A stretch of DNA of 64,000 nt from NCBI GenBank assembly GCA_965113315.1, contig OZ220377.1; one strand, given 5' to 3'. The notes below the pieces were generated by a model. The model was not told the origin of the DNA. It did not search any database and worked only from the letters and a program-made list of their open reading frames with translations. Positions 3,089 to 64,000 of this stretch are shown piece by piece (the stretch's first letter is position 1; every line of letters starts with the position of its first letter). The position numbers were made by a program, and so were the translations under genes. This stretch comes from Podarcis vaucheri. Its lineage: Eukaryota.

Positions 3089-3478
3089 GGCTAAGGGAGC
3101 TGGGCATGTTTAGTCTGGAAAAGAGGAGGTTAAGGGGTGATATGATAGCCATGTTCAAAAATATAAAATTATGTCACATAGAGGAGGGAGAAAGGTTGTT
3201 TTCTGCTGCTCCAGAGAAGCGGACACGGAGCAATGGATCCAAACTACAAGAAAGAAGATTCCACCTAAACATTAGGAAGAACTTCCTGACAGTAAGAGCT
3301 GTTCGACAGTGGAATTTGCTGCCAAGGAGTGTGGTGGAGTCTCCTGCTTTGGAGGTCTTTAAGCAGAGGCTTGACAACCATATGTCAGGAGTGCTCTGAA
3401 GGTGTTTCCTGCTTGGCAGGGGGTTGGACTCGATGGCCCTTGTGGTCTCTTCCAACTCTATGATTCTATGATTCTATG
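3089..3478 (+). mobile_element. Young CR1 LINE, 5'-truncated 3' end
   Basis: ORF 3106..3399 is the CR1 ORF2 C-terminus; (ATTCTATG)n tail; near-identical to the other young copies. Confidence 0.95.
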
Positions 3479-13883: not shown

Positions 13884-14874
13884 TTCATCCTGGAGAAGAG
13901 TGACTAGTGGGGTGCTACAGGGTTCTGTCTTGGGCCCGGTTTTATTCAACATCTTTATCAACGACTTGGATGATGGACTCAAGGGCATCCTGATCAAATT
14001 CGCAGATGACACCAAACTGGGAGGGGTGGCTAACACCCCAGAGGACAGGATCACACTTCAAAACGACCTTAACAGATTAGAGAACTGGGCCAAAACAAAC
14101 AAGATGAACTTTAACAGGGAGAAATGTAAAGTATTGCACTTGGGCAAAAAAAATGAGAGGCACAAATACAAGATGGGGGACACCTGGCTTGAGAGCAGTA
14201 CATGTGAAAAGGATCTAGGAGTCTTGGTTGACCACAAACTTGACATGAGCCAACAGTGTGATGCGGCAGCTAAAAAAGCCAATGCAATTCTGGGCTGCAT
14301 CAATAGGAGTATAGCATCTAGATCAAGGGAAGTAATAGTGCCACTGTATTCTGCTCTGGTCAGACCTCACCTGGAGTACTGTGTCCAGTTCTGGGCACCA
14401 CAATTCAAGAAGGACACTGACAAACTGGAACGTGTCCAGAGGAGGGCAACCAAAATGGTCAAAGGCCTGGAAACGATGCCTTATGAGGAGCGGCTAAGGG
14501 AGCTGGGCATGTTTAGCCTGGAGAAGAGGAGGTTAAGGGGTGATATGATAGCCATGTTCAAATATATAAAAGGATGTCACATAGAGGAGGGAGAAAGGTT
14601 GTTTTCTGCTGCTCCAGAGAAGCGGACACGGAGCAATGGATCCAAACTACAAGAAAGAAGATTCCACCTAAACATGAGGAAGAACTTCCTGACAGTAAGA
14701 GCTGTTTGACAGTGGAATTTGCTGCCAAGGAGTGTGGTGGAGTCTCCTACTTTGGAGGTCTTTAAGCAGAGGCTTGACAACCATATGTCAGGAGTGCTCT
14801 GATGGTGTTTCCTGCTTGGCAGGGGGTTGGACTTGATGGCCCTTGTGGTCTCTTCCAACTCTATGATTCTATGA
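13884..14874 (+). mobile_element. Young CR1 LINE, 5'-truncated (RT 3' half plus 3' UTR)
   Basis: ORF 13900..14709 contains [21 protein letters not shown] and KFADD; premature TGA at 14707; ATTCTATG tail. Confidence 0.96.
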
Positions 14875-14948
14875 AATTCGATGAAATTCTATGCATGGGA
14901 TTGCACTGTAAAAAATTGTTTTAGACATGGGAGGGGAAAGTAAGTTTA

Positions 14949-15532
14949 TTTTTTTTTTTGCAAGTAAATTTTTATTGTTTTCCTTACATATTCTTTTCCA
15001 ACAAATTGTAATAGCACCATACATTTCCTTTGACTCTGCCGAGTCACAACCCCCCTCCTTCCCCACAACTGGTATATTTATCCTCTTTCCATCACACACA
15101 TCATTCTCAAGTTAGTACTATTATACATTGGAGGTATTATGTCAATCCTGCTAGTGTCTTGACCTCTTTACAATTCTTCTTTAAGTATTCAATAAATTTA
15201 CTCCAGTTATTTTGGTATCTTTGATCTCCCTGGTCCCGGATCCTCCCTGACAGTTTGGCAAGTTCTGCATATTCTGTCAACTTCGCCTGCCACTCCTGTA
15301 TAGTTGGTATATCTTGTACTTTCCATCTTTGGGCCAGAAGGGTCCTCGCGGCAGCTGTAGCATACATGAACAAATTTTGATCTTCTATTTTAATTTCTGT
15401 TCCTATTAAGCCTAATAGACACGCCTCTGGTCTTTTGGGAAAAGTATATCTAAATATTTTTTTGAGTTCATTATAAATTGCTTCCCAAAATTTTTTTACC
15501 TTATCGCAAGTCCACCACATATGGAAATAATC
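14949..15532 (-). mobile_element. L1-clade LINE 3' fragment with poly(A)
   Basis: ORF 15137..15520 (HMWWTC..FW..AARTLLAQRWK..PT..EW). Poly-T at 14949. 18-bp TSD gaggggaaagtaagttta at 14931-48 and 15533-50. Confidence 0.9.
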
Positions 15533-18500
15533 GAGGGGAAAGTAAGTTTAAAAGAAGAGCATATACTCCCTTCTTTGGTGAAAACCAGCCTCTGTAGTTA
15601 ACACAGCAAGTAGAAGAGGGGCTCAAAAAGCAAATGTGATTCTTAATTTCGAACCTTTTTTGTTTACAAAAGGCTGTTTGAAAGCCCCACTGTTTGCTCT
15701 GCTGTCTCAGTACAGTAATTGGGACTTCAAAGGGAAGCACCACTTGACATGCCATGACATTAGGTGATAACTTTGGTCCACCAGGGGTGGGGGAGATAAA
15801 GATCTGACCCTCAGGGCAGAAAAGGTGTCCCACCTCTGGTGAAGGGAAAAGGGGTTGTGGAGCTGCAAGGAGAAGGACGGTTGGCAACTTAGAAAGTGTG
15901 GGTGGCAAGGTGTCAGGGGGAGGGATGGCTTTGGTAAGGAGTGAGGGAAAGTGAGGGGGAAGAGGTGGCTTTGGCAGGAGCTGGTGACGATGTACCATTG
16001 GCAAGCAGAGCGAGCAAGCAGGGCAGCCCCTAGTTATATCAAAATAAAATAAAGAGGATATTGGAATAGACAGCCTTTGGTCTGGTCCAGCAGGACTCTC
16101 CTGATGCTCACCGTTATTCAGACATAGAGCACAAACAGAATCCAATGGCAAAATTGCAGAAAATAGACTGGGGGGCGGGGAGGTGTTTGGCAAATGTATA
16201 TGAAGGTGAGTAAGGCAGAAGAATCCTCTTTGGCTAGGCACTGTAAAATTAGGCACCTGGAAGCTTCTCCTCCTCCTCTTCTTTTAACATACAAACCTGT
16301 GACTTCCAACCACTAAAAGTGCCCCAGCCCTCTAAATTAAAATCCACCAGTGGCATCCAACAAATTGGACTGAATAATAGAACAAAATAGCCTGCTATAA
16401 GACCGGGTTCTAGCATTCATTGAAGGGAATCAAAGCTTGAGGCACATAGGGCAAGGATGACATTTAGCAAGGCACATTCAGCGTTTATTGCACTGAGTCA
16501 GACAAATGGTCCATCTAGCCTTGTGTTGTCTACTCTGACTGGCAGGGTCTTTCCTGGAACTGCAATCTGATAGCCTTTTGTTTAGAGAAGCTGAGAACTG
16601 TGCCTGGGGCCAAGATTCATTGCATACAAAGTACGGGCTGTGCCCCTCCCCATTTCTCATGTATTGCGGGTCACCAGATCTTGCACTTAGAACGTATGAC
16701 TGAATTGATATTCTTCTCTAATTTAGTGACCGGTGCCACATTTCCATTTTGAGCTCCAAAGCTTTGGAAGAAGAGGCAAAACAAACAAAACAGAGGCTGC
16801 AAGAGATGGCTTCATAGTGCCAAATAGATAGCAGTCTTTACAGTCATCTGCATAATTGTCTTTCCTATCAAGACCACTTTCCAGCTCTAGAACTGATTTT
16901 GTGGGAGATCCCTTGAGGTTTTATTCTCTTCAAAGTAGTTTAGCCCATATCATCCTTCCTTGTGTTTATAAGAGCAATATCATCTTGGTAAATATATTCA
17001 AGAGAAAGTGTGTGAAAGAATAATACATACATTTAGATTTCTGTCTGTACAAACTTTAAAGCTGCCCTCCACTACTACTACTCTAGTGTGCTTTAAAACA
17101 GGTAGTGGAGGAGGTAGCGGCCTGTTTGGAGATTAACTCTCACTAATTGTTGCTTAATCCTAGTGGTGTGCTGTTAGAACAGCACTGCCAATGCAACCAC
17201 ATTATGGAATGACACTTGACCAACCATATATGCCACTAGAGGTACCAGGAGTGTGAGAAGCAGTGCTCCATCCTGTCTTGCCATGTGCTGCTTGTTCTCT
17301 GCTAACTGCAAGGCTGAGGGTGGGGGGAGGGGAGGGGGGAATGTATAACAAATGCTATCTGTTTTCATTCACAGATCTCAGTCCAATCAGTCATCTGTCG
17401 GTCTTGGGTTCCTGCCAGTTATTGTGTCAATTCCCACACCCACTTTCCTGTAGCTGGAGTCCTTAGAAAGCATTTTTTCCTCTGTCTTCCACGTTCCTTC
17501 CTTTCCACCCTGCTTGCCCTTGATCAGGATCAGACATGTTCTGGAGATGACTTACTGTAGGGAAGGAGTAGTTCACTTTATTTGTCCCTCACACACATCT
17601 CCCCAACAGTTTTCAGCCATGGAAGAAATTGTGGCAGTGGCCAAAGCCATTCCAGCTAAGGGAGCCTTGCCGCTGAACAGCAAATGAGTCACAACTGTCT
17701 TGAAGCAATCTGCTTCTGTTATGATTAGGGCTGGGGTAGGAGGAGAAATTTGATGCAGCTTGCTTTTAAAGGCAAACCTTCCTAATTTACTCTTTCCCAA
17801 ACTATAGGAACAGAAATGCAGCCATTCTTAGAAATTTGCACACTTCTGAATTTTGCAGGGCAGCTCTCCACCCACGTAATGTGTACAAAAATCCATGCAC
17901 TAGTGCATTAAATGCATATATTAGTGAAAATAACCTGACCTGATCCAGCAGGGCTCTTCTTATGTTTTTACTTGTTACTGGTGTTTTTCAAGTGGTCATA
18001 TCCGCATTCATACACCCCTCTCTCCTTCATGCCTGGCACCTTCACTGTACACCTTTAGGCACCAGCCTTTGGCTGATTCACATCCAATGCCCTTTTTAAA
18101 TGTGTTGGGGGAGTTATTGGGTTGTTTTCCCTTTATCTTGATTGTGTATTTTGTGTTTTTATGTTGTGGGTTTTTTTCCTGTGAACCACCCTGAGACCTG
18201 CAGGTATAGGGCGGTATACAAATTTAATAAATAAATATAAAAATGCCTCTCTCTAATGTTCTGAAGGCAGTTAGAAGGAACTGAGCGTGAAGATGCTCAT
18301 CCTATAATGGGAGGAAGGAGTGAGTGCCAATTACCTGATTAAAGCTTTACAAATTTTTGAAGTTGTTCTATGCAGGCTCAGATTCCATCAGAGCGATTGA
18401 TTGAATGGATGAGCACTTGAAAAACATTTTTTTACAATAACTTTGTTTCTCCTTTAGATCTGGTTGAGGTGGTGTCCTGTTTTGTGGCTTTCTTCCAGAC

Positions 18501-25490: not shown

Positions 25491-26305
25491 TAGAATCATA
25501 GAATCATAGAGTTGGAAGAGACCACAAGGGCCATCGAGTCCAACCCCCTGCCAAGCAGGAAACACCATCAGAGCACTCCTGACATATGGTTGTCAAGCCT
25601 CTGCTTAAAGACCTCCAAAGTAGGAGACTCCACCACACTCCTTGGCAGCAAATTCCACTGTCAAACAGCTCTTACTGTCAGGAAGTTCTTCCTCATGTTT
25701 AGGTGGAATCTTCTTTCTTGTAGTTTGGATCCATTGCTCCGTGTCCGCTTCTCTGGAGCAGCAGAAAACAACCTTTCTCCCTCCTCTATGTGACATCCTT
25801 TTATATATTTGAACATGGCTATCATATCACCCCTTAACCTCCTCTTCTCCAGGCTAAACATGCCCAGCTCCCTTAGCCGTTCCTCATAAGGCATCGTTTC
25901 CAGGTCTTTGACCATTTTGGTTGCCCTCCTCTAGACACGTTCCAGTTTGTCAGTGTCCTTCTTGAACTGTGGTGCCCAGAACTGGACACAGTACTCCAGG
26001 TGAGGTCTGACCAGAGCAGAATACAGTGGCACTATTACTTCCCTTGATCTAGATGCTATACTCCTATTGATGCAGCCCAGAATTGCATTGGCTTTTTTAG
26101 CTGCCGCGTCACACTGTTGGCTCATGTCAAGTTTGTGGTCAACCAAGACTCCTAGATCCTTTTCACATGTACTGCTCTCAAGCCAGGTGTCACCCATCTT
26201 GTATTTGTGCCTCTCACTTTTTTTTTTTTTTTTTTGCCCAAGTGCAATACTTTACATTTCTCCCTGTTAAAATTCATCTTGTTTGTTTTGGCCCAGTTCT
26301 CTAAT
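25491..26305 (-). mobile_element. Young CR1 LINE, 5'-truncated
   Basis: ORFs 25661..25915 and 25931..26197 are CR1 ORF2 with a CAG>TAG stop and an expanded poly-T at about 26218-36; (CATAGAAT)n tail at left. Confidence 0.96.
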
Positions 26306-29822: not shown

Positions 29823-29868
29823 GGTGCTGACCTGAAGAAAGGGAATCCAAAAGGCCGTGTATTAACAG
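29823..29868 (+). CDS. PEBP4: PEBP4 internal coding exon (46 nt, phase 0 to 1): GADLKKGNPKGRVLT(D)
   Basis: Acceptor ttcctctcatttcAG at 29821-22 and donor GTaaac at 29869. Peptide matches my recollection of mammalian PEBP4 GADLKKGKIQGQELS, which is also a 46-nt exon. Splices in frame to the 35270 exon (ACA G|AC TAC = T-D-Y). Confidence 0.9.
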
Positions 29869-31250: not shown

Positions 31251-33461
31251 GTTTAAAACAAAGGCAGAAGTTTGAATAGAGCAAGGACAAAAGGAACTGA
31301 GAGGCAAATGGTGGTTTAAAACAACAGAGGTTTGAGTAAAGTGATATGGATAATTACAGGTGGATACAAATGACTTTCTCCAAGATGGGAACCACTTTGC
31401 CCCAGAATTTAAACATTTCCCAGAAACATTTTATTATGGAAGACTACCACCATCACTCACCCCTCTGTGTGCACATACACACCCTGCAAGGCCTTCCACT
31501 GCATCTGTGAGGACCACATGGAGTCTGAGATTAATGTGGCTGCCCCTCTAGAAAGTGTCATGTTCCTACCATACACACAGCTCCTCACCCAGGGTATTTT
31601 GTATTCCTCCTAAAAGTGATTGTTCTCTTTGCCTTTAAATCCTTCCTCTAACCTCCTATTCCATATGGTCTGAGGCTTATCCCCTTAATCCTTATTTCCA
31701 GCTGCAGCTAATGTGCTTTAAGTACATACAACAGCATTTATATCTGCATACCTTCCTAGTCTTGTTTTTCTCTTTGCTGTTTTCCCCAGTGTGTGTGTGC
31801 ATAGCTATATATATCTTAGACTATTTGGTCCTTTGGAATCTGTTTTGCCTGTGTAACTCTGTAAGATGTCATACATACTGATGGTGCTCTGTACAGTAAG
31901 TCATTAATTAATCATTTATCTTTACCTGTTGATCCCACCCCATTCAAGCACCAAAGAAACAGAAGTGGCAAATACAGTATTAACAACGTTACCTCCTTCC
32001 AGTGCAGCAGTGCCACCACTAATGCTTAGACACTTTCCTTAAAATAAAAAAAGTTGTTTGTAGGACTATGCACCACCTTCCCCAAAAACACTGCAGCACA
32101 CATCTTCTTCAAATGCTTTTTTTTAAAAAAAATAATAAAACTGTCAATTGAACTTCTCTACTTTTGATCGCAAGAGAAATTGACCAAAAAAAGACACCAA
32201 TAAGCAAGCTGAAGGCTCCATTTCTATCATGGTACAGTGACTCAATATATGATTGTTTGCAGGAGGATCATTAGAAAGGGGGATGAGGTTGGGATGTGCT
32301 GTGCATCATGATGCAGATATGCCCTTAGGCTGCTATTCTCCTGCACACATTTACCTGGAAGTTAGTCACATTGAACTCAGTGAAACTTACTTCAGAGTAG
32401 ACATGTATAGGTCTGCAGAATTCTCCCTGCCCTACCCATTGCAGTCTCAGGGCACTCCCTGAGGAGATCTCAGCTGAACAACAAAGCTAAGGAATCCTTG
32501 TACACTCAGGCTGGACAGCAGATATTAATCTCTTCTTTATCTAGTACAACAAAATGAAGAGGTGGTAAAAAGTAGTGTGGATAAACCTTTCCATCAGAGA
32601 TGTATCTTGGGCTGGTAGTTGTACCCTCCCATTTCATCATCTCAGAGATGGTTTTTGTAAATTAAAATACTCTGTAGTGAGAAAACCATGGGTAACATAT
32701 CTGCTCATATTATTTACTCTATGCCAGCAGTGACAGCCTGTACACTCTCAGCTCTAATCCCTGTTAATAGCAGCAGCAAATCATGCAGAACATTTGAAAA
32801 ATGTGAACCACCATTTATTTGAGCATTTGTATATGCAATGCTAACAATGGTTTGCACTTAATACAAGTGAAAACCTTACATTAGATAGAATGTTGATTAC
32901 CTAGATTTTTCTTTCATAGACTACTCTGCATCAACAATATAAGCACATGGCACAAATAGCTTGACCTTGCAGCATCTTCCACCAGCTGGAGGGTTTTCAG
33001 GATTGGGCCCAAGCAGGAGTCTTGTTGCCCAAAGAAAACAAAATGGAGAAAGAGCATCAGCTGTGAATTAAATATGTTTTCAATAAATGTGTTCAACCAT
33101 CTGAGATGCTGTTCAAGGAAGATTCCCACCCCCACCCCACCCAAAAAATCATTATACACTCTGGAGGAATTTTAGCCTCTCTGGTCCGGTCCCTTCACAT
33201 CACATCTTCTTTTCCTGAATCCAATCTGAAATGCCCTTCAAGCTAAGATTGGGGTTTTAAACCGGTAGCATCTGCATACATAATAGCTCTGCTTGGTATT
33301 AGGCTCTTTTTCATGACACAGGGGGAGTGGGGAATTGTCAACTCACTAGGGAGGCACTGAAGGTTGATAGCAAGTGATATCCTGGCTCCATTTAAATCTG
33401 AGCTCTCCAGGAATCAAGTGTAGCTTCCATCTGCTGATATAGTACAACCCATGCACTAGAC

Positions 33462-33597
33462 CAGGCATAGGCAAACTCGGCCCTCCAGATGTTTTGAGAC
33501 TACAATTCCCACCATCCCTGACCACTGGTCTTGTTAGCTAGTGATCATGGGAGTTGTAGGCCAAAAACATCTGGAGGGCTGAGTTTGCCTATGCCTG
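33462..33597. mobile_element. Short palindromic hAT MITE
   Basis: Long TIRs caggcataggcaaactc..ccctccagatg; perfect 8-bp TSD cactagac. Confidence 0.92.
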
Positions 33598-33609
33598 CAC
33601 TAGACTCAA

Positions 33610-35269: not shown

Positions 35270-35386
35270 ACTACCGAAGACCCACACCACCACCCAACAG
35301 TGGTTACCACCGCTACCAGTTCCTCCTCTATGAACAGCCAGGTGACGAAACTATATACCTGAACCCAGAGAAAAGTGCATCTTTAG
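35270..35386 (+). CDS. PEBP4: PEBP4 internal coding exon (117 nt, phase 1 to 1): (D)YRRPTPPPNSGYHRYQFLLYEQPGDETIYLNPEKSASL(G)
   Basis: Acceptor ttttatacctcatAG at 35268-69 and donor GTaagg at 35387. Contains the PEBP-family P-x-PP-xx-SG-x-HRY motif and resembles PEBP4 [22 protein letters not shown]. Lies within track ORF 35155..35415. Confidence 0.93.
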
Positions 35387-41296: not shown

Positions 41297-42188
41297 ACGT
41301 GTGTGGAGAGGTAATTGATCAGAATCTTTGGGTGGTGGATGAGTGCATATGTGAAAGGCCCTGTGTTATTCTTCTAGAAAAAGAGGTTCCAGAACGCACC
41401 ATGAACACTCCCCTGGTTCTCTTATGGCAGTGGTGCCCACCTGGGAGGTTCCAGAATTGAGTCTCGTGCTCAGAGTAGCAGTCCATTTGCATACGGCTCT
41501 GGACGCTCCCCAAGGCATGCAGGGCTTCAGGTTACTTAACCCATGAGGCAGTCCCCATCCATGAAGCATTCCTATTCTCAAGTCCTGGGTCTGCAGCTGA
41601 ACCAGAGTGTCAAGGCAGCGTGGAGTTCTGCTGGAATGCCCAGCACGCCTTGCTTCTCATCAGGTTCAAACTCTGGGAGGGGCTGAACCCTGACAGCTGC
41701 TGATCCCAGTTGCCTGGCTTTTCTCATCCCATGTGCCCCACATGCTGCTGATAAAATTTGGGACATGGGCCTTGTGCCTCTTTCCCAAAGCCCTGTAAAC
41801 TTCTGCCCAACTTAGGGAAGGAGGTGCTATGTTCTGACAGGGTGTGAGAGCCCTCCTGCCTCCTTCCCCAAACCCCGTATGTGCTTGCTGGCTTTGGGAA
41901 GGAGGCAGGAGGGCTCTAGGAGCCTGTCAGAGCCTCGTGCCTCCTTCCCAAAAGCCAGGAAGCGTTCCTTCACAATGTTGCTGCCATTGCAGGAGCTGCT
42001 TGCATGAGCCCCATCCACAGCCAGTTGAGAAATTGGCGTGCCCCAGGACAAAGAGCTGGAGGCACCTTCAAGGAAAGCATGGCTGTCCTTGAAAAATCAG
42101 GGCACTTGGAAGGTTTGCAATCCAAGTGGCCTACCAGAAGCAGGAAGCAATTATTTTCATTTGCAGTGAGTAAAGGTTTTGATATGCT

Positions 42189-44487: not shown

Positions 44488-45494
44488 AGCAGTTTTATGT
44501 AGATATTGAGCAGATTGGGGGATAAAATTGAACCTGAGAAACCTCACACCTGAGGTTCCATGGGGCCAAGCAAAATCTTCTAAGCAGCAACGTCTGGAGA
44601 CGACCATCCATGGAGGAGCACAACCACTGCAAAGCAATACCCTCTATTCCCATCTTAGATCATCTCCCATGACTGATGGTATCAAAGGCCACAAAGACGT
44701 CAAGAAAAATCAGCAGGGGCATACTTCACCTGTCCCTCTCGCAATCTTGGTGCCTAAATGCAATTGAAATGGATCTGTAAAACAGTCCCATCCAAGGGAA
44801 TCTAAAGTTGATCAGTGACTGCCTGGTCCAAAACATTATTCAAGGAGATATATGTAATTGGCATAGATTTGTTCAAGTCTTCTGGGTCCAAGGAGGCTTT
44901 TAAAAGGAGAGGTTTTACTGCTGCCTCTTTCAGACAGCCTGGAATCACTCTCTCTCCTAGAGACGCATTAATATTTGCCCCTACTGGACAGAGGCGCTGA
45001 TTGGACCCCACACTGTGGGTGCCCAATGTCGTGGTGTGCGCCGATGTATTACATTGCGACATGTGATGTGATGATGTCATGTCACATGGCACCATAATGG
45101 CGGTGCTGCTTGTACGCTTTGGCGCAGTGGTGGCAACTAGCAGAGCTGCAGGCCCCGGTCCAGTTGCTGCCACCTGCCTCCTCTGCGCAAAGGAGGCCAC
45201 AGAAATGGCAGCAGTGTGGCCGCTGTGGGTGGTGAGCAGAGGTGGCTGTGCATGATAGGCAGTGTGCGGAGGTGGCCATGGAGGCAGTAGGGGGTGGAGG
45301 CAGCTGGGCACCCAGGGCACCCACAGAAAAAAAATATGGGACCTGGGGTAACCCACACCCATCAAAGTGCCATATTATTGTATCAATATCCCCAAGCCTT
45401 ATCAACTGAAATTCAGCCACTAAAACTTGAATAGACAATGCTCTGGATACTGCTGGAAACTGTCCTGCTATAATATTGCAGTCCAGATCCCAAT

Positions 45495-45828
45495 AAACTA
45501 ACAGGAAGAATTCGAAACCGGCGGGACCAGAAATTCACGGAAGACTGGAGTAAATTTATGGACTATTTGAAAAGTATTTGTGAAGATCAGACAACGTTTG
45601 TAGGTTTGCAAGAAGTTTTGTGAGGAGTACTACTAGAAGTATTGCAAAAATGGATAAGGGGAAGGATAATTTGTTAAGAGACTTAAAGGCAATATAAAGT
45701 TAAGAAATGTATAAGAAGTAGATAAAACGGTGGATCATCAGAGGTGCTGATGGAAGTCTAAAAAGATTGTATAAGTGATAAGTTTTGTGGTACATTTTAT
45801 AATTTATCTGTTAAAATCAATAAAAATT

Positions 45829-45877
<49 letters not shown>
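45495..45877 (+). mobile_element. L1-clade 3' fragment with AATAAA and (TA)n tail
   Basis: Reads KLTGRIRNRRDQKFTEDWSKFMDYLK, homologous to ORF 15137..15520. 22-bp TSD atattgcagtccagatcccaat at 45473-94 and 46436-57. Confidence 0.88.
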
Positions 45878-45879
<2 letters not shown>

Positions 45880-45961
45880 TTTCGTAGATTTTCACGGGTA
45901 CAGGAATGCAGGTTTTGGTGTCTTTGGGTGTCTTCCCGTGTAAGAGTCGGGGTGTCTGGGC

Positions 45962-45995
45962 GACGTTTCGACGAGGTCTCACTCGTCATCTTCAG
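45962..45995 (-). ncRNA. Minimal hammerhead-ribozyme motif (identical antisense copy)
   Basis: Exact reverse complement of 46336-46369. Confidence 0.7.
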
Positions 45996-46335
45996 GCTGG
46001 TGCTTTCGGCTTCTTGTTACTGGAACAGAGCAGAATCTGGTGTTTGAGTTCCTATAAATACTGTTGAGGGGTGTGGTGTATAGCCTCCAACGTTCTGGGC
46101 AGAGAGGAAGTTCCTAGATTAGTGTGCCTTTTCTTCTTCAGAATATCACTCATGAAATCACTCAAGATATCCCTCAAGTAATTAAGGAACAAAAGAAGAA
46201 AAGGCACACTAATCTAGGAACTTCCTCTCTGCCCAGAACGTTGGAGGCTATACACCACACCCCTCAACAGTATTTATAGGAACTCAAACACCAGATTCTG
46301 CTCTGTTCCAGTAACAAGAAGCCGAAAGCACCAGC

Positions 46336-46369
46336 CTGAAGATGACGAGTGAGACCTCGTCGAAACGTC
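46336..46369 (+). ncRNA. Minimal hammerhead-ribozyme motif (Penelope type)
   Basis: CUGAAGA-U-[GACGAG ugagac CUCGUC]-GAAA-CG-UC: both conserved boxes, a 6-bp stem II, a palindromic ACGU in place of stem III. Only about 2 bp of stem I is evident. Confidence 0.7.
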
Positions 46370-47425
46370 GCCCAGACACCCCGACTCTTACACGGGAAGA
46401 CACCCGAAGACACCAAAACCTGCATATATATATATATATTGCAGTCCAGATCCCAATGGTTGCAAGCGATTTTATCCTCAAAATGACTTGCAAGTAAATC
46501 ACAGTGGGCTATTGAGGGTTCCTCCACCACCTTTGGGCCAGAATGTAAGAGACCCTCTAAAGCTGTGCTGGACGAAGGACATAACAGAGGCAGAGACGTA
46601 AGTCTTCACTGCGATCACCACCACAAAGTAGGTTCAACAATGGGCATACACCTGTTATATCTGTCTTTGGACCTGCTTCACTGTCCTCAGTGCATTAGAT
46701 CAGGAGAAGAACGCTCCTCTCCCAAGTGTCAGTGGTCCAATGAAATTCAGAGCCTCCTGCGCCTGTCTTAAAATTAAGAAAACATGGAGAGATCTGATCT
46801 TGGATCTCCTGCATAACATGTGGTTTGAATTTCAGGACTGCATCAGGGTGGCATTCAGAATCCAACCTGTAGCTGCTTGATAGCCAGGGAGGCCTCCCAC
46901 AGCTGGGTCCATTATTTATTGATTATTAAAAGAATGTCTTGCTCTATCCTTTAGTTCAAAGCACTGTTTTAACATTTATGTTAAAATTGTTAGCATCATA
47001 AAAACAAATGCAATTGAAACAGAACCATCAGTTTAAACATTACCTGCAAAAACAACTACAGAGGCCAAAATAAGCACATTTGAAAGCAGGTAAGCAGCAA
47101 CAATGTAAACAGAAGGCCTGTTGAAACAGGAAGGATTTATGAGTCTTACTGAATGCCTGCGGCTACAGAACTAATTAATATATAGGAGGCAATTCCATGA
47201 TAAAAGGACCACCATTGCAAAGGCCTTGCTCTAGCAACCCACAGACCTAAATACCTCCAGGAATGGGATACAAGCCAGAATTTCACTCACTCATCTTAAG
47301 AGGGATGGGGGAAGTATTATGAATAGTGCTATTCTTTGAGGTGTGCTAGTTGCAGCCTATGGAGGAATCTAATGGCTAAAGACAATACTAGGGTGTCTAG
47401 AATTGGACAGTAAGTAATCATAGCA

Positions 47426-47763: not shown

Positions 47764-49260
47764 TTTTTTCTTGTTCATTTAAAAATCGTTTATTTGCCAA
47801 ACATTCTCATAATCTTAAAAACCATAAAATAACATACCATGTGCTCCTATCTCATTAAAAGGAAGGAGTACATTATATTTGCAACAATTTTAAAGGTTAA
47901 AATGTATACTTCTATTCCAAACTATGTTACCCACCCCAAACGCATGTGCCTCACTACCTGTGTGTTCAATAAAATTGTCCCATGCTGCATAGAAGTTATC
48001 ATTTTTCTTTTGGTCTCTTGCTACCCGCAGTTTCCAGGTTAGGTTTTCCAACAAAGCTGTCTGCCAGACTGCTTCATACCACTTATCTATGGTTAACAGT
48101 TGCAATGTTTTCCATGTTCTGGCTATGGTCGTTATAAAGTATAAGAACTTTATTTCTAATTCTTGGTGAGTCCTGGCTGTACAAATTAAGCAATTCCAGT
48201 CCTGGGGACTGTCTGTCTTGTAATGAAAGATATATCTGCAAAGACATTTCCCTAGAATTTTTCTATTTTTGAACACTCCCACCACATATGTCTGCATGTC
48301 CCGATAGTGGGACACCCTCTCCAACACATAGGAGAGCTGTTGGGTTTTATATAAGCTAGAGGTCTAGGTATTAAATGTGCTATTTTGTGCTATTTTGAGG
48401 GCTCTTTCTCTTGTCGTTGCCAAAATAGATTTATACAGGCTTTGATCCACAGTCCATTCCATGCATCTTCCTCAATTTCTAAATCCCAATTTGATTCCCA
48501 CCATTCTCTCATACTATTCTGGGAAGAGAAATATGCCTCTGTAGTTGATTTATATAGGGATGATATTAATCCTTTCATTGCTATGTTCTCTAATAATCCA
48601 ATGAATTTTGGGCCAAATCCAAACTTTTTTATCACTTCAATCAAATCAAATACCTGGGTTCTACACAATCAAATTCCTTAAATATATCCAATGATAGACA
48701 GGCTAATGTTGAAGTTATCTGCTTGCTATGATATATTAAGTTCAGTAATTTTCTAATTGGGTCTGTAATTTTGCATCCTGGAACAAACCCTGCTTGGTCC
48801 AGGTGGATGTACCGTAGATTCCGGCGTATTAGGCGACTGGGCATATTAGACGACCCCCCAAATTGGCAGCTGCAATTTGGGGGTTCGTCTTATAAGCCCA
48901 GTTGCCTAATACGCTGGGCAGCTCCACGCCGGGAGAAAGCTGCCCAGAGCGGAGCACGCCGCCCCTGCTGCTGCTTCCAAAGCAGCAGTGGGCGGGCTCC
49001 GCGCCAGGCGGCTCTCTCCCAGTGTGGAGCTGAGTCCGCCACTGCTGCGGCAGCTTCGGAGCTGCCACAGCAACAGCGGGGGGGTGGATACTCGGTGTAT
49101 AAGATGACCCCTGACTTTTTAACCTCTTTTCTAGTGTTAAAAAGTCATCTTATATGCCAGAATTTACGGTATTTCCCAATAAATACAAGGCTCTTTGCTA
49201 AAAAGTATCATAAATATATGAGTCAAATATGCTATTTTCTCCCCAAACAAGGGGAGTCCA
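47764..49260 (-). mobile_element. Degenerate L1-clade ORF2 fragment with internal deletions, split by a MITE
   Basis: YIHLDQAGFVPG..LSLDIFKEFDCVE (RT N-terminus), KFGFGPKF and C-terminal ARTWK..KWYE..WDNF peptides in the ORF track. Confidence 0.8.
48812..49169. mobile_element. Tc1/mariner-type MITE inserted in L1
   Basis: TIRs ccgtagattccggcgtat / atatgccagaatttacgg; TA TSD; CpG-rich. Confidence 0.85.
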
Positions 49261-50030: not shown

Positions 50031-50155
50031 CAGGATGGCCAAACTTGGCCCTCCAGCTGTTTTGGGACTACAACTCCCATCATCCCTAGCTAACAGTACC
50101 GGTGGTCAGGGATGATGGGAACTGTAGTCCCAAAACAGCTGGAGGGCCAAGTTTG
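50031..50155. mobile_element. Short palindromic hAT MITE, right TIR tip missing
   Basis: Same family as 33462; 8-bp TSD atttagat at 50023-30 and 50156-63. Confidence 0.88.
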
Positions 50156-50640: not shown

Positions 50641-51024
50641 TTGCAATAGTTAAGTGTGTGTATGTGTGTGTATAGAATCATCAAGGTTAATATCATCAAT
50701 ATTGATATTGATATTATTAATATAAAGTTGCTAACCTGCAACTTTAATAATATATGGAATTTAAGCTAGCTGCTATATTGCCTTTGACTTTAAATAGGCT
50801 TACATGTGGCTGTTATCCAATCTCCTCCTCACTACACCCCCAAATCCAATCCCAACCATGTACAGTATTTGTCTTTTCTGGTCAGCCAGGTTGGCTCTTT
50901 AATGCACATTGAAAGGACATTGCTTCCCTCAAAGAATCCTGGGAAATGTAGCTCTGTGAGGGGTAGCTGTAACTCTGTAAATCACCATTCAGCTTCTTCT
51001 TTAAAAGTGTTTTGCATAATGTCT

Positions 51025-51345
51025 GAACTGATCCAGAGAGACCAAGAGCGAGCGGCTGCTGCAGTGACGGGACCAGCGGCAGCAAGGCTACCAAAGAGGA
51101 AGCCCAGGCCCTCCTCTTCTTCGCCCTGGCCATCCCAGTTGCCAGCCTGGCTGGTGCTCTGCAGACTGGGCTCCAACGGGATCTCTGCAGCTTCCCCACT
51201 CAGAGGCGGTGACTTAGCCGCCATCTCAACAACCGAGGAGGCAGCTTCACTCTCAGCCTCTGCTGCCTCCTCAGCAGCAGAGGAGGAAGGGGGCAGTGGC
51301 TGCCCCAACCGAGGAGAGTCCACCATGTCACTCAGCTTGGCTCTC
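51025..51345 (-). pseudogene. AEBP2: Orphan fragment resembling AEBP2 exon 1 (N-terminus of the PRC2 cofactor)
   Basis: Colinear matches to remembered AEBP2 sequence: LSDMVD/ITDMAD, RLGQPLPP/RLSPLPP, EAAEAESEA/EAEAEA, EPSLQSTSQAG/EPSPESASQAG, GEEEEGLGFLFGS/GEEESSAESLVGS, RSWSL/RSLSP. Several differences are CpG deaminations. Confidence 0.65.
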
Positions 51346-51735
51346 TCACACCTTTGCTTGGCTGCTCTCAGAGGCTCATACAGCAACAATGCGGGAGGAG
51401 TGGGGATTGGTTGAAAAACCAGCAGAAAAAGGCCAGGCCACCACCAAGAACAGGTCAGTAGCACAAATCGGAAGTGGAGGAAGATCTGGGGGAGAGTAAC
51501 GGGAGAATCCTGCCGGTGTAAATAACACAATAGGAAAAACTTGGGCTTTCTTTACCAATAAAATGCAGCATTAAGGAAAGTCATTTTCACAGGTCTGGCT
51601 GTTCAGGTATTTGCATCAGCTGTTTATATAGTGAGGTTTGGGTACAAATTCCTCTTGTTTGGATAAGTGAATTTTCATGTAATGAGCATTCAGACAGCAG
51701 GACCTGCATGTATTGAGATTTCTGTTGGACATACT

Positions 51736-52906: not shown

Positions 52907-55900
52907 CCCCTTCATGGATCACTGCCTTGCTGTGGCGAAGGGGCTTGAATAACTCAGAGAAGCTATGAGCTATGCCGTGCAGGGCCACCCAAGATGGACA
53001 GGTCATAGTGGAGAGTTTTGACCAAACATGATCCACCTGGAGCAGGAACCGGCAAGGCACTCCAGTATCCCTGCCAAGAAAACTCCATGGACAACAGCAA
53101 CAGGCATATAAAAGTTAAGATGCTGGAAGATGAGCCCCTCAGGTCGGAAGGCATCCAACATGCTACTGAGGAAGAGCGGAGGACAAGTACAAATAGATTC
53201 AGAGCTGATGAAGCGGCTGGGCCAAAGCCGAAAGGACGCTCAGTTGCGGATATGCCTGGAAGCGAAAGGAAAGTCCAATGCTGTAAAGAAAAATATTGCA
53301 TAGGAACCTGGAATGTAAGAACCATGAACCTTGGTAAGTTGGATGTGGTCAAAAATGAGATGGCAAGAATAAATATTGACATCCTGGTCATCAGTGAACT
53401 GAAATGGACGTGAATGGGTGAATTCAGTTCGGATGACCATCATATCTACTACTGTGGGCAAGAATCCCGTAAAAGAAATGGAGTGGCCCTCATAGTCAAC
53501 AAAAGAGTGGCAAAAGCTGTACTGGGATGCAATCTCAAAAATGATTGAATGATCTTGATATGAATCCAAGGCAGACCTTTTAACATCACAGTAATCCAAG
53601 TTTATGCACCAACTACCAGTGCTGAAGAAACTGAAATTGACCAATTCTATGAAGACTTACAACACCTTCTAGAAATGACACCAAAGAAGGATGTTCTTCT
53701 CATTATAGGGGATTGGAATGTTAAAGTAGGGAATCAAGAGATAAAAGGAACAACTGGCAAGTTTGGCCTTGGAGTTCAAAACGAAGGGCAAAGGCTAATA
53801 GAGTTCTGTCAAGAGAACAAGCTGGTCATCACAAACACACTTTTCGAACAACACAAGAGACGACTCTACACATGGACAGCACCAGATGGGCATCATCGAA
53901 ATCAGATTGATTATATTCTCTGCAGCCAAAGATGGAGAAGCTCTATAAAGTCAGCAAAAACAAGACCTGGAGCTGACTGTGGCTCAGATCATCAGCTTCT
54001 TATAGCAAAATTCAAGCCTAAACTGAAGAAAGTAGGAAAAACCACTGGGCCGGTAAGATATAATCTAAATCAAATCCCTTATGAATACACAGTGGAAGTG
54101 AGGAACAGGTTTAAGGATTTAGATTTGGTGGACAGAGTGCCTGAAGAACTATGGATGAAGGCTAGTGACATTATACAGGAGGCAGCAACAAAAACCATCC
54201 TAGTGAAAATGAAATGCAAGAAAACAAAATGGCTGTCCAACAAGGCCTTACAAATAGCGGGGGAGAGAAGGCAAACAAAATGCGAGGGAGATAGAGAAAG
54301 ATACAGGAAATTGAATGCAGATTTCCAAAAAATAGCAAGGAGAGACAAGAAGGCCTTCTAAAACAAGAAATGCAAAGAAATAGAGGAAAACAACAGAATG
54401 GGAAGAACCAGAGATCTGTTCAAGAAAATTGGAGATATGAAAAGAACATTTCGTTCAAAGATTACCATAATAAAGGACAAAAGTGGAAAGGACCTAACAG
54501 AAGCAGAAGACATCAAGAAGAGGTGGCAAGAATACACAGAGGAATTATACCAGAAAGATATGTCTTGTACACCCCGGGTAGTGTGGTTGCTGACCTTGAG
54601 CCAGACATCCTGGAGAGTGAAGTCAAATGGGCCTTAGAAAGCACTGCAAATAACAAGGCCAGTGGAAGCGATGGTATTCCAGCTGAACTATTTAAAATTT
54701 TAAAAGATGATGCTGTTAAGGTGCTACACTCAATATGCCAGCAAGTTTGGAAAACTCAGCAGTGGCCAGAGGATTGGAGAAGATCAGTCTACATCCCAAT
54801 CCCAAAGAAGGGCAGTGTCAAAGAATGCTCCAACTACTGCACAATTGCACTCATTTCACACGCTAGCAAGGTTATGCTTAAAATTCTAGAAGGCAGGCTC
54901 AAGCAGTATGTGGACCGAGAACTCCCAGAAGTGCAAGCTGGATTTCAAAGGGGCAGAGGAACCAGAGACCAAATTGCAAACATGCGCTGGATTATGGAGA
55001 AAGCTAGAGAGTTCCAGAAAGACATCTACTTCTGCTTCATTAACTATGCAAAAACCTTTGACTGTGTCGACCACAGCAAATTATGGCAAGTTCTTAAAGA
55101 AATGGGAGTGCCTGATCACCTCATCTGTCTCCTGAGAAATCTCTATGTGGGACAAGAAGCTACAGTTAGAACTGGATATGGAACAACGGATTGGTTCAAA
55201 ATTGGGAAAGGAGTACGGCAAGGCTGTATATTGTCTCCCTGCTTATTTAACTTATATGCAGAATTCATCATGCGAAAGGCTGGGCTGGATGAATCCCAAA
55301 CCGGAATTAAGATTGCTGGAAGAAATATCAACAACCTCAGATAAGCAGATGACACAACCTTGATGGCAGAAAGTGAGGAGGAATTAAAGAACCTTTTAAT
55401 GAGGGTGAAAGAGGAGAGCGCAAAATATGGTCTGAAGCTCAACATCAAAAAAACGAAGATCATGGCCACTGGTCCCATCACCTCCTGGCAAATAGAAGGG
55501 GAAGAAATGGAGGCAGTGAGAGATTTTACTTTCTTGGGCTCCATGATCACTGCAGATGGTGACAGCAGTCACAAAATTAAAAGACGCCTGCTTCTTGGGA
55601 GAAAAACAATGACAAACCTAGGCAGCATCTTAAAAAGCAGAGACATCACCTTGCCAACAAAGTTCCGTATAGTTAAAGCCATGGTTTTCCCAGTAGTGAT
55701 GTATGGAAGTGAGAGCTGGACCATAAAGAAGGCTGATCACTGAAAAATTGATGCTTTTGAATTATGGTGTTGGAGGAGACTCTTGAGAGTCCCGTGGACT
55801 GCCAGAAGATCAAACCTCTCCATTCTGAAGGAAATCAGCCCTGAGTGCTCACTGGAAGGACAGATTGTGAAGCTGAGGCTCCAATACTTTGGCCACCTCA

Positions 55901-56120
55901 TGAGAAGAGAAGACTCCCTGGAAAAGACCCTGATGTTGGGAAAGATGGAGGGCACAAGGAGAAGGGGACAACAGAGGACGAGATGGTTGGACAGTGTTCT
56001 CGAAGCTGCCAGCTTGAGTTTGACCAAACTGCGGGACACAGTGGAAGACAGGAGTGCCTGGTGTGCTCTGATCCATGGGATCATGAAGAGTTGGACACGA
56101 CTAAACGACTAAACAACAAC
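52907..56120 (+). mobile_element. Full-length (about 3.2 kb) BovB RTE LINE, inactivated
   Basis: APE endonuclease (GTWNVRTM, IIGDWN, NQIDYIL, CGSDH) and RT (GVRQGCILSP, INNLR*ADD) in fragmented ORFs 53018-56112. (CAA)n tail. 11-bp TSD aaagtgcatct at 52896-906 and 56121-131. Confidence 0.97.
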
Positions 56121-61457: not shown

Positions 61458-62430
61458 AACCCATATCAAATACCTAGCATTAGGTCAAGTCTCCCTTACT
61501 TACCGTAAATGTTCTTTGCACCATCATCACCAGTTTTCCAGCACATACAGTGCATAGCTTTGCTTCACCGTCATCTAGCCATTTTGGCAGAAGGGTTAAG
61601 AACATAAGATGAGCTAATGTCCCATCTAGTTCACCATCTGTTTTGTCACCTGGGCAGGTAAGGTCACGCCCATCTCTAGTCACATGCAGAGGAAGTTTGT
61701 CCCAGCCCAGGAGGAAACAGGAAGTTTTCTACTGGCTGAACCAAGCATCCCCTTGCATGTCCACTCTAGGAATGAGGACTTGACTGCTGTGTTTCACATC
61801 CCACACTTACTCCCCACATCCCAGTCAATTTTTCCAGCTTCCATGGAAACGTAGAGATTGATAAGAGGCTGGATGCATCCTTAAACTGGAAAGTGGTCTG
61901 TTGAGTATAAACATGTTTACTATTTGATGGCACTGGTTAGGTTTTTATCCTCAGCTCCATTTGTAATTAGTGATTGTCGGGACTAGGCCAAGACTCTGAG
62001 AAGCCATATTTGAATCCACACCCATGAGGGTCTTTCTCAACTAAGGGATTGGGTTTTCTTTTGCTGAACTGGAGAGATGAAGCTGCCAGTGCATGCAGAG
62101 GATGCTGCACTATTGACCGGGCAAGAGCAGAAAGCCAAACACATCGTATTTATTTTATTCTTAGCCAACATTGCCTGTCGGTCAAAGGGGCTAATGCTGG
62201 AACTCCTATTTCCAAGTGCTATGCCTCTGAGGTGTGTGAGGCATGAACCAACACATTCCTAGGGGGCCTACTAATCTAAACTCCAGTCCAATTTTGAATC
62301 CCCTATAGTAGTAAGTACCCTTTTATAGTACACAAAGTGCTGGTCCGCCCAGTGAATTTTATAGATTATTAGGGGCTTTCAATGAAAACTCAGGTGTCCA
62401 AACTAAGCAATCTCTCTGCAATACCACATT

Positions 62431-64000
62431 TCATAGAATCATAGAATCATAGAGTTGGAAGAGACCACAAGGGCCATCGAGTCCAACCCCCTGCCAAGCA
62501 GGAAACACCATCAGAGCACTCCTGACATATGGTTGTCAAGCCTCTGCTTAAAGACCTCCAAGGAAGGAGACTCCACCACACTCCTTGGCAGCAAATTCCA
62601 TTGTCGAACAGCTCTCACTGTCAGGAAGTTCTTCCTAATGTTTAGGTGGAATCTTCTTTCTTGTAGTTTGGATCCATTGCTCCGTGTCCGCTTCTCCGGA
62701 GCAGCAGAAAACAACCTTTCTCCCTCCTCCATGTGACATCCTTTTATATATTTGAACATGGCTATCATATCACCCCTCAACCTCCTCTTCTCCAGGCTAA
62801 ACATGCCCAGCTCCCTTAGCCGTTCCTCATAAGGCATCGTTTCCAGGCCTTTGACCATTTTGGTTGCCCTCCTCTGGACACGTTCCAGTTTGTCAGTGTC
62901 CTTCTTGAATTGTGGTGCCCAGAACTGGACACAGTACTCCAGGTGTGGTCTGACCAGAGCAGAATACAGTGGCACTATTACTTCCCTTGATCTAGATGCT
63001 ATACTCCTATTGATGCAGCCCAGAATTGCATTGGCTTTTTTAGCTGCCGCGTCACACTGTTGGCTCATGTCAAGTTTGTGGTCAACCAAGACTCCTAGAT
63101 CCTTTTCACATGTACTGCTCTCAAGCCAGGTGTCACCCATCTTGTATTTGTGCCTCTCATTTTTTTTGCCCAAGTGCAATACTTTACATTTCTCCCTGTT
63201 AAAATTCATCTTGTTTATTTTTGCCCAGTTCTCTAATCTGTCAAGGTCGTTTTGAAGTGTGATCCTGTCCTCTGGGGTGTTAGCCACCCCTCCCAGTTTG
63301 GTGTCATCTGCAAATTTGATCAGGATGCCCTTGAGTCCATCATCCAAGTCGTTGATAAAGATGTTGAATAAGACCGGGCCCAAGACAGAACCCTGTGGCA
63401 CCCCACTAGTCACTCTTCTCCAGGATGAAGAGGAACCATTGATGAGCACCCTTTGGGTTCGGTCAGTCAGCCAGTTACAAATCCACTGAGTGGTAGCATA
63501 GTCAAGACCGCATTTTACCAGCTTCTTTACAAGAATATCATGGGACACCTTGTCAAATGCCTTGCTGAAATCAAGGTAGGCTACATCCACTGCGTTCCCT
63601 TCATCTACCAGGCTTGTAATTCTGTCAAAAAACGAGATCAGGTTAGTCTGACATGACTTATTTTTCAGAAATCCATGCTGACTATTGGTGATCACAGCAT
63701 TCCTTTCTAGGTGCTCACAGACTGTTTGCTTAACGATCTGCTCCAGAATCTTCCCTGCTATTGATGTCAGACTGACTGGGCGGTAATTATTTGGGTCCTC
63801 TCTTTTCCCCTTTTTGAAAATAGGGACAACATTTGCCCTCCTCCAGTCTGCCGGGACTTCGCCTGTTCTCCAGGAATTCTCAAAGATGACTGCCAGTGGT
63901 TCTGAGATCACATCTGCCAGTTCTTTTAATACTCTTGGATGCAGTTCATCTGGCCCTGGAGACTTGAATACATCTAAACTAGCCAAATATTCTTGTACTA
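62431..64000 (-). mobile_element. Very young CR1 LINE running off the window edge
   Basis: (CATAGAAT)n tail at 62431; uninterrupted ORF2. Confidence 0.97.
62511..64000 (-). CDS. CR1 ORF2 reverse transcriptase domain and C-terminus (partial, open at window end)
   Basis: At least 491 aa without stops: [45 protein letters not shown]. The frame stays open to position 64000. Confidence 0.93.

Follow-up and report, generated by a model that had tools for sequence, protein, structure and literature searches.

Head-to-head truncated Penelope-like element copies in a TA microsatellite behind an older LINE fragment, presumably within the last intron of lizard PEBP4

The DNA analyzed here, a 64-kb stretch that we call the window, holds two coding exons of PEBP4, both upstream of the insertion that is the subject of this report:

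29823..29868, + strand: PEBP4 coding exon before the penultimate one
35270..35386, + strand: penultimate PEBP4 coding exon (Pfam PBP; 98% identical to Podarcis muralis PEBP4)

The 98% identity to the Podarcis muralis exon identifies the host as a lacertid lizard. The penultimate exon lies 10.5 kb upstream of the insertion. Neither the last PEBP4 coding exon (best score of 26, against a self score of 161) nor the three first coding exons were found in the window. An earlier description made from the letters alone (the sequence-only reading) had placed the insertion inside a PEBP4 intron. The two upstream + strand exons support this placement and, with the last coding exon lying outside the window, we infer the intron position: the insertion would lie in the last PEBP4 intron, which would be more than 28 kb long. 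This presumed intron also contains a GC-rich island (50794-51551) with long open frames on both strands, which could be a nested exon, a promoter or a processed gene.

The insertion and its immediate surroundings consist of the following features:

45473..45494, + strand: left copy of a 22-nt direct repeat (the two copies are 100% identical), read as the target-site duplication of an older LINE
45495..45831, + strand: 5′-truncated LINE 3′ end of 337 nt, with the last 42 codons, a stop at 45621-45623, the 3′ UTR and AATAAA
45832..45877, no strand: (AT)23, the left part of an interrupted microsatellite and likely the LINE tail
45878..45905, − strand: 28-nt tail, a 3′ extension of the inverted copy only, ending at +112 from the ORF ATG
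45906..46138, − strand: left arm, an inverted, 5′-truncated element copy (ORF end and pLTR) in which TBLASTN of P0001 and P0002 matches the − strand
46138/46139: head-to-head junction with about 1 nt of microhomology, judged from the family's own upstream sequence
46139..46192, + strand: 54-nt spacer, element ORF sequence present in the right copy alone
46139..46279, + strand: end of the Penelope ORF, the last 46 codons and a stop (46277-46279 in the frame of this copy)
46193..46425, + strand: right arm, the forward copy without the tail, with its 3′ end at +84 from the ORF ATG
46424..46439, no strand: (AT)8, the right part of the interrupted microsatellite, overlapping the right arm end and the 22-nt duplication
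46436..46457, + strand: right copy of the 22-nt direct repeat, overlapping the AT run by 4 nt

Comparison of the window with itself reproduced every dimension that had been claimed for the inverted pair, namely two 233-nt arms with one mismatch (T45925 vs G46406), the 54-nt spacer, the 28-nt tail on one arm and TA repeats on both sides. Each arm has private sequence, the tail on the left and the spacer on the right, such that the forward copy is 287 nt long (46139-46425) and the inverted copy 261 nt (46138-45878). Both element 3′ ends, at 45878 and 46425, stop at GC and then AT, which would allow 2 nt of pairing between the element RNA and an (AT)n primer at either start site. Self-comparison and TBLASTN detected no further copies of the same Penelope family within the 64-kb window, a search for the tail sequence in metagenome contigs gave 0 matches, and no target duplication belonging to the Penelope pair itself was readable inside the microsatellite.

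The 22-nt direct repeat, which was absent from the sequence-only reading, has a rough chance bound of 4e-5 (its first 4 nt could be AT-run sequence on the right copy) and encloses 941 nt comprising the LINE 3′ end, the AT tract and the Penelope pair. The peptide encoded by the LINE end gave six matches, five to related short proteins (47-89% identical), in which no relevant Pfam domain was found, and one to an unrelated 3319-aa protein. This peptide is also 50% identical over 38 aa to that of a second LINE end at 15137-15547, which resembles RT zinc-binding clusters with a weak recognition score. The LINE 3′ end at 45495-45831 may belong to the L1 clade, in which an APE endonuclease and an RT precede the C-terminus of ORF2. 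The simplest order of events would be that the LINE inserted first and that the Penelope pair later entered its (AT)n tail. Microsatellite-tailed LINEs exist in squamates, where the accessible part of PMC6050309 describes CR1 and Rex elements with AATAG rather than AT; our literature search found nothing direct on Podarcis Penelope or Poseidon microsatellite targeting in squamates.

Several other elements populate the window. The second LINE 3′ end (15137-15547, − strand) has a 3′ UTR extending to ∼14940 and an A10 tail instead of (AT)n, and adjoins a fragment at 13884-14887 that is presumably CR1-like. One young LINE family is represented by four copies that are 97-98% identical and occur in both orientations (3089-3478, 13884-14887, 25491-26305 and 62428-63429); relative to the copy at 13884-14887, those at 25491-26305 and 62428-63429 are inverted, and read-through RNA could pair into further long duplexes. 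The endonuclease and RT frames of a near full-length LINE (52960-56112, + strand), which we assume to resemble RTE/BovB, are interrupted by stops and frameshifts. Short MITE-like palindromic repeats lie at 33456-33603, 41812-41963, 48821-48917 and 50031-50155, and the palindromic repeats at 33472-33597 and 50031-50155 are kin.

The identity of the inverted pair was traced through the coding stretch that the spacer forms together with the right arm's first 84 nt. The 46-residue peptide matched two longer proteins among eight candidates, P0001 (95%) and P0002 (86%). P0001 is a Podarcis muralis translin-associated factor X model whose ∼100 C-terminal residues derive from the same Penelope family, either through an annotation error or as an exonised copy. 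P0002 has a GIY-YIG domain (Pfam E of 6e-4) and shares 89% identity over 316 aa with P0024, a Podarcis protein that has an RVT_1 domain (E of 4e-16) with DKG and YVDD motifs and a GIY-YIG match (E of 1e-3) slightly short of the Pfam cut-off. Through this chain the proposed link of the arm to an RT plus GIY-YIG ORF was found, and the element is therefore of the Penelope/Poseidon type. P0024 has a single cysteine between residue 381 and the GIY motif and hence no CX2-5CxxC linker; this linker between RT and EN is present in Neptune and Nematis and absent from Penelope/Poseidon, according to the portion of PMC8557442 at hand. A single ORF with RT and C-terminal GIY-YIG, as expected of EN+ PLEs, is found in the family and not in the truncated locus itself. 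The locus does have an inverted 5′-truncated copy beside a forward copy, as PLEs do, and the optional tail at one end, which measures 28 nt (30 nt with the following AT) against 30-40 nt quoted in PMC8557442. By sequence, we conclude that the unit is two 5′-truncated copies of a lacertid Penelope/Poseidon-type element. The earlier proposal of a Penelope-like identity, with minimal hammerheads and an inverted pLTR that has a tail, is supported.

The hammerhead motifs and the ATG built into one of them are placed as follows:

46336..46369, + strand: hammerhead core, minimal type I (C3 = 46336, C17 = 46369, palindromic ACGU, stem I of 2 bp)
46344-46349 paired with 46356-46361: stem II of the + strand core, 6 bp (GACGAG/CUCGUC)
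46342..46344, + strand: ATG built from hammerhead A9, the unpaired U and G10.1
45962..45995, − strand: hammerhead core, minimal type I, of the inverted copy (the match runs 45995-45962)

A search of both strands of the window with the pattern CTGANGA-N-N14-30-GAAACGTC gave two matches, one per arm on opposite strands, and none in 100 shuffles used as the control, in agreement with the two opposed cores originally described. The core has the features that the available text of PMC4209133 gives for minimal hammerheads (C3-A9, G12-A14, U16.1-H17, the extra base after A9, G10.1-C11.1 and the palindromic 15.2-16.2), except that helix I, given there as 4-5 bp, has a contiguous pairing of 2 bp. The short stem I had been pointed out before, and it stays at 2 bp with the common family variants at 46372/46373. 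The motif is therefore graded down to a variant of the minimal hammerhead. Searching with hammerhead models, which had been proposed as a check, did not detect the cores: the Rfam models matched neither, whether at the gathering score or at E up to 10. Cleavage is predicted after C46369, which is +28 from the ATG. When an arm was folded alone, stem II was seen at a stability that was not significant (z of −0.9 to +0.6), and cofolding of two cores gave −25.8 for another pairing vs −20.3 for the forced dimer in a model that ignores the tertiary contacts of the core. The sequence-only reading had suggested dimeric cleavage from palindromic stem III motifs. The ACGU palindrome is indeed present, but the cores lie on opposite strands and are never same-sense in one RNA; a dimer therefore cannot form in cis.

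The ATG at 46342, absent from the sequence-only reading, is likely the start codon of the element ORF. The peptide that it would begin ends in RENLRKHI, a motif similar to the N-terminal sequences of two distant PLE proteins, P0027 and P0029 (a similarity reached in 5 of 2000 shuffles, with the motif chosen post hoc), and BLASTP of this N-terminal peptide against P0027 gave no significant match. The pLTR thus spans the end of one ORF (stop at 46277-46279) and the start of the next (ATG at 46342), with modest support from the N-terminal motif. When P0001 and P0002 are compared with 46280-46352, the ORF of the related copies is seen to extend as far as the stem II loop of the hammerhead, where its stop overlaps the ATG of the next ORF, whereas that of the window copy stops at 46277-46279; this ORF-end difference follows species labels.

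Four of 24 sequencing runs were aligned to 45878-47200, a stretch without the LINE and the long AT run: X1; X6 (same species label, other sample); X10 (DNA, organism G); and X23 (RNA, organism G). The Penelope family is clearly very abundant, with a summed depth on the element in X1 of 2e5-1.6e6 vs 96 on the unique flank, a ratio that is not a copy number. We rejected private decay as the origin of the frame differences from P0001 and P0002: few X1 sequences have the extra bases, which organism G shows more often, and the differences are therefore family differences. Loose ends behind 46439 begin with additional AT letters in all four runs (29, 18 and 21 contigs; 13 reads), and in many family copies (AT)n follows directly on an end at the +84 site. 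(AT)n also adjoins some of the 5′ truncation points, which argues that the microsatellite is a target and not just a tail.

Head-to-head junctions at other truncation points numbered at least 11 (11 of the 15 among the joints listed). Ten of these 11 were in X1 (depths of 50-164 vs 96 on the unique flank) and one in X6; their spacers ranged from 5 to 208 nt, and 0-4 nt fit both sides. An unusual structure is not supported, since head-to-head copies with one tail are a described PLE layout that recurs at many family loci. Three of the 11 other joints listed fall close together in AT-rich sequence surrounding the ORF stop (46253-46279; mirror 46075-46078), which suggests a preferred truncation or cutting point.

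The single mismatch between the arms is explained by a CpG-to-TpG change that departs from the majority state of the family (96% of the X1 depth), and one such change in 233 positions suggests that the Penelope insertion is young. At the locus itself, the X1 contig runs from the flank through (AT)8 into the arm as far as 46414, giving 10 element-specific letters, fewer than our 31-letter bridging rule. The X6 and X10 contigs aligned through (AT)8 to 46424 and then continued with 8 and 29 letters, respectively, that do not fit the arm; the X6 contig may carry a longer AT run and then the element. These contigs fit a young, unfixed insertion, short of proof. The depth at 46440-46500 is far above single-copy (6550 vs 96 in X1), and the target site itself may lie in an older repeat.

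Taken together, we conclude that the locus holds two 5′-truncated lizard PLE copies, head to head in (TA)n behind an older LINE fragment, most likely produced by recent double priming on element RNA and likely inert beyond a predicted read-through hairpin; we assign this reading a probability of about 0.8. For the route itself, the odds are slightly in favor of each nicked strand having primed its own cDNA, one per start site, followed by joining. After the LINE insertion had given the 22-nt duplication and the (AT)n tail, the Penelope endonuclease would have nicked both strands of the (AT)n tract. The top-strand end would then prime cDNA at the distal start site (+112), yielding an arm and the tail, and the bottom-strand end at the proximal start site (+84), yielding an arm and the spacer; both cDNAs would halt early and be joined end to end with ∼1 nt of microhomology. 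Because the tail is present only on the left and the spacer only on the right, fold-back of either cDNA cannot yield both, and the private sequence in each arm argues for two primings rather than fold-back. The route is also in line with PAc, the Anolis carolinensis Poseidon element (Penelope/Poseidon clade): its protein, a predicted dimer, both nicks and extends each of the two strands, and its tail lies between two RT start sites (PMC11167929), although the accessible part of that paper does not derive inverted copies from two-ended priming.

Among alternatives, we regard as unlikely, yet worth serious consideration, that the inverted copy of the same element arose by self-priming on an antisense template instead of by two primings on sense RNA. 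The available text of PMC3846280 reads rotifer head-to-head junctions with palindromes in this way, and the family RNA in X23, with its 2:1 strand bias, has about one third of its depth in the minority polarity (132 vs 267 summed bin depth). The junction here, however, lacks a palindrome and is accompanied by a 54-nt unpaired spacer, with 5-208 nt in the 11 other joints listed. Furthermore, the left arm end coincides with the position that matches the PAc sense-RNA RT start, and the tail is not obtainable by fold-back of the right copy.

A single composite event, in which the Penelope machinery carried the LINE fragment with its (AT)n and made the 22-nt duplication, seems improbable to us. One duplication does enclose both elements, and PLEs can mobilise unrelated DNA flanked by duplications, as reported in the consulted part of PMC3846280, but the LINE end lies outside the arms and not between pLTRs, the X6 and X10 contigs show the AT run at the site without the arm in register, and (AT)n follows the end of the family element at many other places. 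We see very little chance that the inversion is an assembly artefact: such structures trouble assemblies (per the portion of PMC8557442 available) and no piece bridging the inner junction of the window copy (46138/46139) was present among the pieces listed, but the arms differ by a CpG-type change, the tail and the spacer, the right junction is present in the X1 contig, and the other head-to-head joints occur in short-read contigs independent of the assembly.

The long dsRNA stem that had been proposed for read-through RNA is supported by folding, with a predicted hairpin of −493 kcal/mol that is fully paired on the PEBP4 strand, where the single mismatch becomes a U-G pair. Holding a hammerhead core open against this hairpin would cost ∼61 kcal/mol by folding prediction. 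In read-through RNA of either direction, the antisense arm would be made first and would zip up the sense arm as it emerges, such that the hammerhead would be kept both from folding and from meeting a partner for dimerisation, while ADAR could act on the duplex. In this model, the hairpin likely blocks both hammerheads. The sequence-only reading was correct that the antisense arm comes first in PEBP4 pre-mRNA, but this order is a property of the geometry in both directions and is not specific to the gene. Because the antisense arm comes first from either side, intron cleavage is unlikely, and the proposal of co-transcriptional cleavage is further weakened by the 61 kcal/mol cost, the absence of a cis dimer and the protein dependence of the PAc hammerhead.

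A working ribozyme device, in which the hammerhead cuts PEBP4 pre-mRNA or small RNAs from the hairpin regulate PEBP4, is for these reasons scarcely credible. Both cores are intact, the hairpin pairs without interruption in PEBP4-strand RNA as noted, and the PAc hammerhead can cut with protein present (PMC11167929, part available). Set against this are the arm order and energy penalty given above, a stem I of 2 bp that the common variants at 46372/46373 do not extend, and the report that minimal hammerheads are inactive as monomers and need a dimer for cleavage (available text of PMC4209133). In addition, the 208 X23 RNA reads, too small a set to be decisive, showed no accumulation of ends at the cut site, nor were read ends found there in the anole in the accessible part of PMC11167929, and the pair was not seen in register in two other samples (X6 and X10), which argues that it is not conserved. 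There is no sign of function of the Penelope pair at the PEBP4 locus.

Feeding of ADAR, which had also been suggested, is plausible for the family, and the data contain nothing on the PEBP4 locus. X23 is organism G RNA of which ∼12% was read, and its 208 aligned reads are family-wide, with zero depth on the unique flank (46463-47200). The differences private to X23, deduced by subtraction from tallies and seen as counts alone, without positions, strands, frequencies or same-animal DNA, were A>G (14) or T>C (9) in 23 of 24 rows. With six visible RNA-only rows added, A>G or T>C stood against other changes at 24 vs 6 in X23; the corresponding split for X10 DNA was 10 vs 15 (p = 0.005 by Fisher test). 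This excess matches the ADAR pattern, at the family level only and silent on the PEBP4 locus.

A more general proposal, which we offer tentatively and with the balance of probability against it, is that head-to-head Penelope insertions are the footprint of double-ended priming by one EN/RT dimer, with one cDNA per nicked strand and one per internal start site. Each insertion would be born as an antisense-first hairpin that silences its own hammerhead, and such insertions would chiefly account for the massive ADAR editing seen in lizard Penelope RNA and perhaps also for small-RNA silencing across the family. Neither the two-ended-priming reading of inverted copies nor the link to editing was found in the literature searched, from which subscription papers mostly fell outside the scope. 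The single locus, a young member of a very abundant family arranged in a layout already described, carries little weight, yet it is a clean test case, in which one arm per start site and the private sequence separate two-ended priming from fold-back. If the insertion is polymorphic, it would also allow an allele-by-allele view of the effect of a 233-bp intronic hairpin on PEBP4 expression.

Several classes of known element can be set aside. A MITE or foldback DNA transposon has symmetric terminal inverted repeats at both ends and its own duplication; we rejected this class, since the tail makes the ends asymmetric and the arms consist of a retroelement ORF and pLTR. A microRNA precursor was likewise rejected, as all Rfam miRNA scores were far below gathering (for example, 63 vs 211 bits) and the matches were to the stem only. 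L1 twin priming is a related process, which likewise starts from both target strands and joins an inverted piece to a forward one. Its second priming is internal and the pieces barely overlap, whereas both primings at the locus in the window would start near the same 3′ end, giving a 233-nt overlap and a hairpin. Non-LTR retrozymes are tandem same-strand units, each with a hammerhead (bioRxiv 2026.07.22.740005, in the part available), and were rejected because the cores here lie on opposite strands without a tandem array.

Among the closest known systems is PAc, for which the available part of PMC11167929 gives a cut at +26, an RT start at +111-118 and an ORF that begins at stem II, together with a ribozyme that cuts only with the element protein and is dispensable for insertion in vitro. 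Our element likewise has an ATG at the start of stem II, a predicted cut at +28 and a distal 3′ end at +112, and shares the tail between two ends, the AT-rich target and the combination of RT with C-terminal GIY-YIG. It differs in belonging to a separate lacertid family, in being represented at this locus by only 287 and 261 nt without a functional ORF, in its pure (AT)n tract and in the possible 2-nt pairing with the target, whereas the PAc start site is described there as non-homologous to the cut DNA.

An inverted 5′-truncated copy and a tail at one end only make up the standard arrangement of PLEs, as given in the Fig. 2 legend of PMC8557442 and in the accessible text of PMC3846280. The insertion is real, young and ordinary. 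One such case is Adineta vaga Pen2/Pen2a (PMC3846280), in which an inverted head-to-head copy with one tail also lies inside another retroelement. In contrast to the copies described in the consulted parts of these two sources, the arms in the window do not enclose a full-length copy; a spacer of 54 nt separates them, the junction lacks a palindrome and the pair has no readable duplication of its own. Pairs of minimal hammerheads on opposite strands 100-700 bp apart were reported in 2014 (PMC4209133, part available), and those in the window, ∼340 bp apart, fall within this range; their stem I of 2 bp resembles the D. virilis variant rather than the 4-5 bp form, and stem II is 6 bp. Finally, the available text of PMC5625713 describes lizard Penelope as a massively edited repeat with more than 40,000 sites, and that of PMC10636886 describes Penelope as a top editing target in X. 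tropicalis. Like these hyper-edited repeats, and like the palindromic Xenopus Harbinger, the pair is predicted to fold on itself into a tight hairpin, and its family RNA has the A>G/T>C excess. In the accessible parts of these reports, no structural reason is given for the signal from lizard Penelope; built-in head-to-head copies would offer one for the known hyper-editing of its RNA.
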